Below are positions 53,872 to 55,701 of a DNA stretch of 64,000 nt, one piece after another; positions within the stretch are counted from its first letter, which is position 1, and every line of letters begins with the position of its first letter. A program made the position numbers and the translations under genes. Source of the DNA: Candidatus Wolframiiraptor sinensis (GTDB taxonomy: Archaea > Thermoproteota > Nitrososphaeria_A > Caldarchaeales > Wolframiiraptoraceae); NCBI GenBank assembly GCA_023261815.1, contig JALNKA010000002.1, positions 68,340-132,339 of the forward strand, given 5' to 3'. Under the pieces are notes generated by a model. That model ran no database searches, was not told where the DNA came from, and was given only the letters and a program-made list of their open reading frames with translations.

Positions 53872-53955
53872 CCCGTCGAAACCCGAGCAATCCATCATAT
53901 ATGTTTAGCCTCAGCCCTCAATGCTTTTAATCCGGGAATATTCATCCCTCGTGGA

Positions 53956-55701
53956 ATGGATTCTCACAAGGGATCCTTAGATCTGGAGTCTGTTCTGGAG
54001 AGCGTTGCCTCGCCCATGAGGCTGAGGATCTTGAAGGCTCTAGCGGGCCGGAAGCTGAGCTACACGGAGCTCGTGAAGGCCGTTGGGCTCAATAGGGATA
54101 GGGATGCCGGCAAATTCTCCTACCACCTCAAGAAGCTTCTCGCCGTTGGGCTCGTGGAGGTAGAAGCACCTACGGGGAAATACGTGCTATCGAGCAGGGG
54201 GGCCAGGATCCTGAGCGCCTTAGAATCCATTGAGGAGGAGCTGAGGGATAAGAGCCGGATGATGGTGAGAAGGAGCAATCAGATAGTCGAGCCATTTGAT
54301 AGAAGCAAGATAGCCGAGGCCCTGATAAGGGAGGGAAAGCTCCCGCCGAAGCTAGCGAGCGAGATAGCTGCAGTTGCCGAGAGGAAGCTCCTCGACCTCA
54401 GGATAGAATACCTTTCAGCCCCCCTAATCCGCGAGCTCGTCAACGCCATCCTCTTGGATATGGGCTTGGAAAAATATAGGCATAGGCTCACGAGGATAGG
54501 CATGCCCCTACATGACGCCGAGGCGCTTTTCAGAAGAGCCTTGGAGAGCGGGGACTGGATGCTTTTCACCCAAGAAACATCCGGCGCCATAATGAGGGAG
54601 TACCTGCTATTGGGATTTCTCCCGAGAAGCATCTCGGACATGCACCTCAGCGGAAAGATCGACATATATCCGATATCCGGCTGGCTCTCATGCTTATTCT
54701 CGAAGGCGATTAAACTCGATTCGGAGGAGCTGGTTAAATCCGCGATGAAGTTATGTTCCTCAATATTCCACATCAAGCACGAGATAAGGCTCCTGGGATC
54801 TGAGGCCGGCGTCAAGCAGCTCATCTCATCGCTGCCGGACAAGCTACCCGGGAGGCGGATAATATCCACCGAGGCCTTTGACGATATTATGAGGTTTCTT
54901 CAGGAGATCTCGAGAGACACAAGATCCAGCATCGGGGTAATATTCGACTGCGGAAAGCATGATATCCGGGATATAGCTTCGGTGAGCAGGCAGTTGTGGA
55001 AGCTCGGAATCCCGCACGCATACGCGCTATCCGGTGAAACTTATTTCACAGGGTTCCGCCTAGATGAAGATTGCCGGGCGATCCACTCCATAATCACGTT
55101 GAATGCGCTTAGAGCCGCCATGGAGGGCGATGGCGACCTGGAGGGGATGATCTCGAATCTCAGAGGATGGCTGAAGAGCATTTTACCAATCATCAGGAGG
55201 GGATTAATGCTTGCGGGGAGATTTCATGGCGAGAGCAAGCCCTGCTCCATGATCGCATTGAGCGGCTTGATCGAGGCCGCGAAGCTTATGGCGAGGGGCA
55301 AGTCGGCGACAATAGAGGAGGCTGTGGAGCTGGAGCTCGCCGCGCTGAGGGAGCTGTCAAAGCTCATGCAGCAGGCGAATGACGTGATGCTCGTTGGCAG
55401 ATGCCCCATCTCAGCCGCGAAGCGATTCTTCCACCTAGACTCGCAGAGACACGACAATGAGTTATTGAGGAACCTCACACGCGGAGCCAAAGCATACAGC
55501 TTGACCCCGATTCCTGAACTGAGCGAGTTCAGGAGCCTGGATTCATGGATTGAGCCCGCCAAGCAGATGGTACAGAATCTTAATGGCGGGTTCTGCCTGT
55601 GGATGAGGCTGAGCAGGCTTCCGAGAACCCTGAGTGAGGCGATATACATTGCCGAGGAATTAAGGAAATACAATAAGCATGGCGTAATAGTAGTCACATG
55701 A
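53956..55701 (+). CDS. Winged-HTH + ATP-cone + degenerate class III ribonucleotide reductase-like fusion protein
   Basis: SPMRLRILKAL..GKFSYHLKKL..GLV (wHTH); VRRS..EPFDRSKI..LSAPLIRELV (ATP cone); LTRIGMP, LPRSISDMHLSGKIDI, LNGG (NrdD-like); no C-terminal Zn site or RxxGY. Confidence 0.8.
   Translation: MDSHKGSLDLESVLESVASPMRLRILKALAGRKLSYTELVKAVGLNRDRDAGKFSYHLKKLLAVGLVEVEAPTGKYVLSSRGARILSALESIEEELRDKSRMMVRRSNQIVEPFDRSKIAEALIREGKLPPKLASEIAAVAERKLLDLRIEYLSAPLIRELVNAILLDMGLEKYRHRLTRIGMPLHDAEALFRRALESGDWMLFTQETSGAIMREYLLLGFLPRSISDMHLSGKIDIYPISGWLSCLFSKAIKLDSEELVKSAMKLCSSIFHIKHEIRLLGSEAGVKQLISSLPDKLPGRRIISTEAFDDIMRFLQEISRDTRSSIGVIFDCGKHDIRDIASVSRQLWKLGIPHAYALSGETYFTGFRLDEDCRAIHSIITLNALRAAMEGDGDLEGMISNLRGWLKSILPIIRRGLMLAGRFHGESKPCSMIALSGLIEAAKLMARGKSATIEEAVELELAALRELSKLMQQANDVMLVGRCPISAAKRFFHLDSQRHDNELLRNLTRGAKAYSLTPIPELSEFRSLDSWIEPAKQMVQNLNGGFCLWMRLSRLPRTLSEAIYIAEELRKYNKHGVIVVT

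Follow-up and report, generated by a model that had tools for sequence, protein, structure and literature searches.

A gene of 581 codons in Candidatus Wolframiiraptor sinensis codes for a member of a new and widespread archaeal protein family, probably of regulators, in which an ATP cone is combined with a retired class III ribonucleotide reductase (RNR); the family lies outside NrdR. The gene lies at positions 53956..55701 of the window, that is, the whole stretch of 64,000 nucleotides of contig JALNKA010000002.1 that was analyzed. The protein has an N-terminal winged helix-turn-helix (wHTH), an ATP cone and a C-terminal barrel with the fold of NrdD, the class III RNR. We consider it probable (about 0.6) that the family is a nucleotide-sensing transcription factor for RNR genes, derived from a retired class III RNR and analogous, not homologous, to NrdR, the bacterial RNR repressor. 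The features of the gene are as follows:

53956..55701, forward strand: whole gene, 581 amino acids (aa), with wHTH, ATP cone and a catalytically dead, C-terminally truncated NrdD-like barrel (open reading frame, Pfam and fold).
53992..54219, forward strand: ArsR/SmtB-type wHTH, aa 13-88 (Pfam HTH_20, DUF7347 and HTH_5; helices and wing in the model).
54259..54477, forward strand: ATP cone, aa 102-174 (PF03477).
54535..55698, forward strand: NrdD-fold barrel, aa 194-581 (profile, fold, site comparison and dimer model).

Taken alone, the protein does not match the Pfam NRDD family (PF13597), and the roughly 400 residues that remain after the two N-terminal domains are blank in Pfam. NCBIfam only gives a sub-threshold metalloregulator wHTH and no RNR, and a single-sequence search of the Protein Data Bank (PDB) does not match any NrdD. 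The profile of 38 family members matches solved class III RNRs (S. thermophilus 9d3x, 2.3e-18; T. maritima 4coi, 6.4e-15), and 29 of these members match PF13597 themselves (E up to 0.01, best 2.6e-81). In the AlphaFold2 (AF2) model of the studied protein (pLDDT 85.8, pTM 0.71), aa 194-581 are predicted to form the ten-stranded alpha/beta barrel of RNR and pyruvate formate-lyase (RNR/PFL), as expected of an NrdD. A Foldseek search with this model ranks class III RNRs first (9d3x, E 6.8e-14), with class I RNRs below them. VIA-align places the model on P. copri NrdD (8p27_A) with Z 26.1 and a root mean square deviation of 3.6 A over 358 residues, on T4 NrdD with Z 24.7 and on T. maritima NrdD with Z 23.6. 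Residue 581 of the model aligns just ahead of the Zn-ribbon/glycyl-radical domain (T4 residue 537, T. maritima residue 588).

Several NrdD motifs are common to the barrel: YLxAPLIRE, TRxGxPxYD, AHLSGxIH, NLPR and GG. The home barrel keeps Asn383, Glu440, Arg490, D495, Tyr514 and Gly544-Gly545; compared to the long forms of the family, it has some 150 residues fewer. An earlier note on this DNA, made from its letters alone, had seen NrdD-like remnants here and had made its reading depend on a comparison with NrdD by profile and by structure. The motifs which it quoted (LTRIGMPLHD, LPRSISDMHLSGKIDIY and NLNGGF) are present in the translation, the family profile and the PF13597 matches lead to NrdD, and Foldseek and VIA-align both return the RNR/PFL barrel of class III RNRs.

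The catalytic sites were compared with those of five bona fide NrdDs which adjoin family genes (PF13597, E 1e-146 to 2e-195). All five have every radical site: the beta-strand Cys (PYCVGWDL / RPFCQ), the finger-loop CC(R/A) and the C-terminal SR[VI][VT]GY. In the home protein, a Ser occupies the beta-strand Cys position. Its finger loop, SGETYFTGFRL, has a Gly and a Phe where 5/5 NrdDs have Cys-Cys, and the chain ends before the glycyl-radical domain, leaving a gap at both radical-loop columns. It contains no RxxGY, nor any CxxC..CxxC in its last 90 residues. Motif search and structural alignment thus agree with the claim that the protein stops at 581 aa without either motif. The Zn ribbon is missing in all 15 short forms listed.

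The same holds for the family. We aligned 188 members of at least 540 aa to a profile together with the reference NrdDs, and none of them (0/188) has a Cys on the beta strand together with a finger-loop Cys and the radical Gly. Cys does not rank among the eight most frequent residues of the beta-strand column. The finger-loop Cys is retained in nine members, and a Gly is found at the radical position in 14; only one has Gly-Tyr there, and this one has neither Cys. The non-radical Asn of the NLPR motif (Asn383) is retained in 168 of the 188. Judged by its sequence, all this leaves the barrel CATALYTICALLY dead, as is the whole family.

Intermediate stages of this loss are still alive: Gly replaced by Ala with the Cys kept, Cys lost, radical loop lost and zinc ribbon lost. 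In the long forms which adjoin a real nrdD, TGCR[LF] is retained, but the sequence SRISAKY has Ala in place of Gly. The Cys is missing from other long forms, the zinc ribbon is all that remains in "mid" forms, and in the home clade even the ribbon is gone. In a FastTree phylogeny the ribbon-less short forms are one clade (support 100). The C-terminal truncation is therefore derived, since the sister of this clade, P0066, still has a ribbon. Real NrdDs fall among the long forms (81% support); the tree does not resolve the root relative to them.

The partners of a class III enzyme were not found in the home genome either, which is 92.4% complete. No NrdG is above cut-off (TIGR02495, best 52.7 bits, cut-off 131; TIGR02491, best 34.2 bits, cut-off 126), and there is no PF13597 match, hence no NrdD. 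The earlier note had reported no activase gene nearby, which can now be extended to the whole of this assembly, and it had named a separately encoded glycyl-radical domain as a possible objection; none was found in the genome. Its single class I/II-type RNR, which has an ATP cone, is the nrdJ gene of contig C16.

The two N-terminal domains are where the earlier note had placed them (wHTH at about aa 10-90, ATP cone at about aa 100-175). Three Pfam families match the winged helix: HTH_20 at aa 18-70 (5e-10; 39.6 bits, cut-off 27), DUF7347 at aa 13-88 (1.6e-9) and HTH_5/ArsR at aa 19-68 (2e-7; 31.2 bits, cut-off 22). At the level of the profile score, the metalloregulator model NF033788 stays far below cut-off (30.8 vs 55 bits). 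The single-sequence PDB search only finds wHTH proteins, and the N-terminal domain aligns to the structures of NmtR, NolR and ArsR. The predicted recognition helix, aa 47-64 (RDRDAGKFSYHLKKLLAV), is almost invariant across the family: in 38 members, H57 is invariant, and D50, A51, G52, F54, Y56 and L58 are at least 90% conserved. The ATP cone (PF03477, 8.8e-7, 29.8 bits vs cut-off 25.8) is matched by all 38 members, in which V104, E112 and I119 are invariant and R105, F114 and K118 at least 90% conserved. The N-terminal hairpin of ATP cones has the signature V-x-[KR]-R...E-x-F...K-I, which the protein matches with VRRSNQIVEPFDRSKI.

All three domains are under purifying selection, as judged from sequence comparison with two orthologues (L002 and L008). 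The NG86 dN/dS is 0.10-0.11 overall and lowest in the ATP cone (0.03-0.05), the most strongly constrained domain of the protein; the wHTH has 0.12-0.14 and the barrel 0.10-0.12. These ratios are approximate because dS is 1.2-1.3.

The family is large. A word-indexed search gives 77 relatives, several of them with PF13597. An exhaustive search of representatives at 50% identity gives 976 matches with E <=1e-3 and 134 with E <=1e-30; most of the 976 are 640-800 aa long and align to residues ~10-245. Members are found in at least 579 species genomes. The best 80 of these relatives come from Caldarchaeales-type metagenome-assembled genomes, Bathyarchaeia, Culexmicrobium and Hecatellales, and cluster look-ups extend the family to Nitrososphaerales, Odinarchaeia and "Thermoproteota". 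Named relatives include Wolframiiraptor (77-78% identity), Caldarchaeum, Terraquivivens and Geocrenenecus. The names which members carry in their sources include "anaerobic ribonucleoside-triphosphate reductase", "HxlR/ArsR family regulator" and "ATP cone domain-containing protein". Within Caldarchaeales, 68 of 76 genomes carry the gene, as a single copy; it is present in 41 of the 43 genomes of high quality, and 14 of 15 genera have it. A survey of the architecture across TACK genomes together with dN/dS, as the earlier note had proposed, thus finds it widespread and with values near 0.1 in every domain.

NrdG2 is over cut-off in 6 of the 76 Caldarchaeales genomes. A few genomes of the home family (G042:C29, G043:C57 and G056:C24; L095, L096) have a real ATP-cone NrdD (frame of 722-728 aa) besides the dead paralogue, about 2 kb from an NrdG2 over cut-off. 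In two loci (L044:3071-5068 and L076:1390-3626), the family gene consists of two neighbouring open reading frames (ORFs), the second of them with a match to PF13597; the cause of the split is a frameshift, decay of the copy or an error in the assembly. One metatranscriptome (X1) contains contigs which are 95-99% identical to the gene, at depths of 16-18, compared to 20-30 for the neighbouring genes; X1 consists only of contigs, so transcription is not proven by it. No reads on the stretch were found in the raw-read RNA runs X2-X4, in which the presence of the organism is not established.

How might such a protein work? The dead barrel would dimerize through the N-terminal helices of its core, like NrdD. 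A homodimer model of aa 185-581 scores 0.72, compared to 0.00 for the best of three controls. Of 30 proteins solved as same-chain pairs, 20 reach this mark; among 23 proteins with single-chain structures, one does. Agreement between the runs is at least 94% of the contacts, with a partner pLDDT of at least 86. The predicted symmetric interface comprises aa 185-221, 244-246, 258-272, 288-298 and 419-425; the helices involved are 185-221 and 256-272. NrdD dimers have already been solved, so the pass may reflect the likeness to NrdD. If the barrel is a dimer, two winged helices would face a palindromic operator. The ATP cone would sense the ATP/dATP state and alter DNA binding or the oligomeric state, and the effector and substrate pockets retained in the barrel may also read the dNTP state. 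RNR genes are the likely targets; in the home genome this would presumably be nrdJ, and in Bathyarchaeia grx-nrdD, with either sign of regulation conceivable. The promoter of the gene itself may be a further target in some lineages.

The genome context in Bathyarchaeia is consistent with such targets. Among the Bathyarchaeia-type loci (L022-L080), a family ORF could be called in 53 and none in 6; a downstream neighbour is available in 48 of the 53. A real nrdD is found directly downstream and on the same strand in six loci (L053, L074, L059, L056, L058 and L048), two of which (L056 and L058) have a glutaredoxin gene in between. Apparent class II RNRs beside the family genes of L048, L053 and L074 were discarded: Pfam shows ATP-cone cross-matches to the real NrdD. 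The neighbouring ORF in L076 is, according to Pfam, a fragment of the split family gene. The other frequent neighbour is pyrB, found at most two genes downstream of the long-form family gene in 38 of the 48 loci; either pyrB or pyrI is found in 40 of 48. In several loci pyrB and pyrI diverge from a spacer of about 100 bp and do not form a pyrBI operon (L022, L023, L032, L033, L036, L037, L041, L046, L050, L060, L064, L065 and L075).

Two publications (PMC9110341 and PMC12176259) describe NrdR as rare in archaea. In our searches NrdR (TIGR00244) is found in none of the 76 Caldarchaeales genomes, with no match in the home genome. It is also missing from the five genomes in which the family gene sits directly upstream of nrdD, whose completeness is unreported. 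In this small sample, the family gene thus holds the "nrdR slot" upstream of nrdD. Four of five genomes with the family gene by pyrB have a real nrdD elsewhere, with nrdR directly upstream (153-163 bits, cut-off 124.65); the fifth has neither. These four (G081, G083, G084 and G085) contain an apparent archaeal nrdR-nrdD unit, with a bona fide bacterial-type nrdR upstream of a bacterial-type nrdD; the nrdR-nrdD loci of Bathyarchaeia are L150-L153 and L159-L162.

Candidate operators were found at RNR genes in both lineages. In Bathyarchaeia, the near-palindrome GTACAAAATTTTATAC (pattern TACARAAWTTTAWAC) lies between the family gene and grx-nrdD, just 5' of a TATA-like block. The 795 kb of loci contain six exact matches to TACARAAWTTTAWAC, all directly after the stop codon of the family gene; one of them is in L048, which was not used in defining the pattern. 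A perfect 5-6-5 variant, ATACAGAAATTTGTAT, occupies the same place in L055, L060 and L078. Each of five whole genomes (0.9-2.0 Mb) contains a single exact match, located at the family-gene/nrdD site. The palindrome there is no NrdR box, since those genomes have no NrdR. The promoter of the family gene itself contains a 2-mismatch copy, overlapping the TATA box, in L056 and L074. The proximal promoters of Bathyarchaeia otherwise share only a BRE/TATA-like TTAAC-TTTAAAC element.

Other candidates in Bathyarchaeia were rejected. Sites with one mismatch have unrelated genes as neighbours or belong to a duplicated gene fragment. An enrichment of dyads upstream of the family genes is due to a divergent tRNA gene (T-arm CCCGGATTTGAACCGGG on the strand shown), which lies some 110-190 nt 5' of the family gene in L025, L029, L032, L033, L035, L039, L041, L042, L049, L051, L065, L075 and L079. 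Locus L146 (G077 C9, about 1190-2779 of the locus) carries a 3' piece of the family gene (101 aa) beside a phage-type integrase. The piece is accompanied by an exact copy of the promoter with the palindrome and has an ArsR-like ORF of 153 aa upstream; it looks like a partial duplication by an integrating element.

In the home family, a different repeat is found at nrdJ. In a set of 27 nrdJ 5' regions (6.2 kb), CTCTA-N6-TAGAG with at most one mismatch is found in 19; of 21 matches in 82 kb, 19 fall there. In genus g1 the repeat is within codons 5-10 (11 of 12 regions), and the home site is at C16:4686 (CTCGAGAAAATTAGAG). In genera g3 (2/2) and g4 (6/6) it lies about 180-190 nt upstream. Codons 7-9 of nrdJ in g1 (AAA TTA GAG) are invariant at the nucleotide level in 12 of 12 regions, and TTA accounts for only 4.3% of Leu codons. 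The repeat is also found upstream of the family gene in L011, in L014 and in G050. The Bathyarchaeial palindrome was discarded as an operator in the home genome, which has no exact copy and one with a single mismatch, none of them at nrdJ or at the family gene. The open frame of the home nrdJ (G000 C16:4315-4700) extends about 120 codons 5' of a likely TTG start at C16:4675. This start has a Shine-Dalgarno-like GGGGAG 8 nt before it, and comparison with the orthologues favours this shorter frame. The longer ORF, which begins with an ATG, is probably spurious.

Several points weigh against a role as an RNR regulator. Nucleotide binding and DNA binding are themselves predictions. All counts come from related genomes and are hence non-independent. 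The commonest neighbour, pyrB, is convergent with the family gene; for this reason, and because the genomes are related, its linkage may be inherited synteny. The family and NrdR coexist in four genomes, so that one does not simply replace the other. The arms of the two palindromes are different despite an almost invariant recognition helix, and another factor could bind either of them. The repeat at nrdJ is found in none of the seven regions of genus g5. At the home nrdJ the candidate site has one mismatch and sits within the first codons. If AT-rich codons are preferred at 5' ends, this could equally account for the invariance of the g1 codons. Genome-wide, the arm-only pattern shows no enrichment, with 43 matches compared to 27-34 in shuffles; there are 7-15 per genome compared to 3-20 for a reversed control. 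Finally, neither palindrome has a good copy in the regulator promoter of the home genus, the home copy being degenerate.

The immediate setting of the gene bears on what else it might control. An uninterrupted ORF spans exactly 53956-55701; its start is the first start codon of the open frame, and orthologues start at the same position. The gene is divergent from secE-spt5-L11-L1-L10, with a 57-bp spacer between them. On its other side lie NAC, a PUA protein, HflX and MBF1, on the opposite strand. The earlier note had described an intact frame among core genes, divergent from secE-spt5-rpl11, just as found here. Of 20 Caldarchaeales-type loci (L002-L021), all have NAC-PUA-HflX after the gene and 17 have secE-spt5 before it; other Caldarchaeales genera have extra genes between secE and the family gene. 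The spacer contains the following elements:

53899..53955, no strand: 57-bp spacer common to the gene and the divergent secE (sequence, orthologous spacers and motif comparison).
53924-53931: single TATA-like element CTTTTAAT, so placed that it could serve both leaderless genes.
53936-53943: 8-bp palindrome GAATATTC between the TATA-like element and the ATG, a putative site.
53917-53932: CTCAATGCTTTTAATC, a putative site which resembles the CTCAATATTTTTAGAG element of Geocrenenecus orthologues, with a degenerate right arm.

The TATA-like element lies some 25-30 nt from either start codon. This arrangement suggests that a single bidirectional promoter region gives rise to two leaderless transcripts. 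The spacers of orthologues, when aligned, show no conserved operator. The home genome also has two small stand-alone ATP-cone ORFs, besides nrdJ and the studied gene:

G000 C9:149210-149413 (L092): stand-alone ATP-cone ORF, open frame of 105 aa.
G000 C22:3930-4103 (L094): stand-alone ATP-cone ORF, open frame of 88 aa.

A nucleotide-sensing DNA-binding regulator might have its main targets outside the RNR genes: pyrBI or, in the home family, secE-spt5-L11-L1-L10, so that nucleotide status would be coupled to the growth machinery. The frequency of pyrB or pyrI within two genes in Bathyarchaeia, the promoter spacer with one TATA-like element which the gene has in common with secE in the home genus, the conserved secE and NAC neighbours, and the persistence of the family in genomes which already have nrdR-nrdD all agree with this idea. 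We nevertheless think it rather unlikely: pyrB is not co-transcribed with the family gene, no shared operator was found at pyrB/pyrI, genes intervene between secE and the family gene in other Caldarchaeales genera, and the only well-defined palindromes found are those at nrdD and nrdJ. The protein might also not be a classical transcription factor at all. Dead paralogues often work by pairing with active relatives, and the barrel could pair with, or sequester, an active RNR or an enzyme of nucleotide metabolism, the wHTH acting as a tether to DNA or having another role. The dimer interface retained in the model and the tandem with a real nrdD in six loci fit such contacts. On the other hand, neither the home genome nor most Caldarchaeales have an NrdD partner, the recognition helix is among the most conserved stretches, and the wHTH is under purifying selection, which makes this an improbable account of the family.

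An enzyme which carries out a nucleotide conversion or hydrolysis without a glycyl radical would explain why the barrel is under selection and why non-radical residues persist (Asn383 in 168/188, Glu440, Arg490, Tyr514 and Gly544-545). It would have to do so in a barrel some 150 residues shorter than in the long forms, with all three radical sites lost family-wide, with no activase found in the home genome and NrdG2 in few Caldarchaeales; the fold is not known to support any non-radical chemistry, and we regard such an enzyme as very improbable. The loss of the catalytic sites and of the C-terminal domain is also what would be expected of a functionless, decaying remnant of nrdD. The selection and distribution data contradict this: the frame is uninterrupted, every domain has a dN/dS near 0.1, a single copy is nearly universal in 14 of 15 genera, and the synteny is conserved. 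A weaker point in the same direction is the one RNA library which contains contigs of a close relative, with depths similar to those of the neighbouring genes. Decay can be practically dismissed, in line with the argument of the earlier note against simple decay.

We thus favour a nucleotide-sensing transcription factor for RNR genes. Observed are the architecture and its fold, the catalytic-site loss, purifying selection, the distribution among genomes and the gene neighbourhoods; the binding of nucleotides and of DNA, the sign of regulation and the targets are predicted. The computational checks which the earlier note had asked for all favour its proposal, a (d)NTP-sensing factor on an enzyme scaffold: the barrel, the lost sites, the selection and the spread of the family strengthen it, as do the lack of NrdR in the order and the position of long family members upstream of nrdD. 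Its functional analogy to NrdR stands as an inference only. A broader version can be put forward tentatively, as a possibility with the odds against it. The family might be a master regulator of archaeal dNTP supply in Thermoproteota (Caldarchaeales, Bathyarchaeia and aerobic Nitrososphaerales) and in some Asgard archaea. Having kept the specificity and substrate pockets of an RNR beside the ATP cone, a dimer could read both ATP/dATP and the dNTP balance through two or three nucleotide sites, and act on operators of RNR and perhaps pyrimidine genes. If so, it would be a richer sensor than NrdR, evolved independently from the very enzyme which it controls.

No description of a wHTH + ATP cone + NrdD-like architecture was found in the literature, supplements and subscription journals being outside the scope; nor was it found in publications on RNR phylogeny and horizontal transfer, NrdR and Caldarchaeales in which its terms were looked up. 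Since NrdR is rare in archaea according to the publications cited above (PMC9110341, PMC12176259), the control of RNR transcription in them is largely unknown. The family is a concrete and testable candidate for this role, nearly universal in an order without NrdR. If the proposal is true, it is a clear case of an enzyme turned into the sensor of a regulator which controls its own pathway. Many members are misnamed in public records as "anaerobic ribonucleoside-triphosphate reductase", even in aerobic ammonia oxidizers, and metabolic reconstructions are therefore distorted.

Known systems resemble the family in part. The likeness to the NrdDs of P. copri, S. thermophilus, T. maritima and phage T4 lies in an ATP cone followed by a ten-stranded barrel (Z 24-26), with the same dimerization region in the model; unlike them, the studied protein has no beta-strand Cys, thiyl Cys, Zn ribbon, glycyl-radical loop or NrdG partner, and a wHTH has been added. 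ArsR/SmtB families bind palindromes as dimers, and the N-terminal domain matches HTH_20 and HTH_5 over their cut-offs. In contrast to these repressors, dimerization is predicted through the RNR barrel and not through the wHTH helices, and the effector is presumably a nucleotide, not a metal. The M45/UL45 proteins of betaherpesviruses are inactive homologues of the RNR large subunit, which have lost their catalytic residues and have a non-enzymatic role. They differ in deriving from class I R1, in being viral, in having no DNA-binding domain and in targeting host signalling proteins.

The closest parallel is NrdR, in which a Zn ribbon is joined to an ATP cone. Both have a DNA-binding domain next to the cone, both are linked to RNR genes (NrdR upstream of nrdD in four Bathyarchaeia genomes, the family in six other loci), both have palindromic candidate boxes at RNR promoters, and the predicted logic is the same: ATP/dATP would govern the binding to DNA. 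The candidate boxes of the family presumably differ from the NrdR box. The DNA-binding domain of the family is a winged helix, not a Zn ribbon, and does not match TIGR00244. The family is archaeal, and it carries a dead RNR barrel of 390 residues, a predicted dimer former, for which NrdR has no counterpart.

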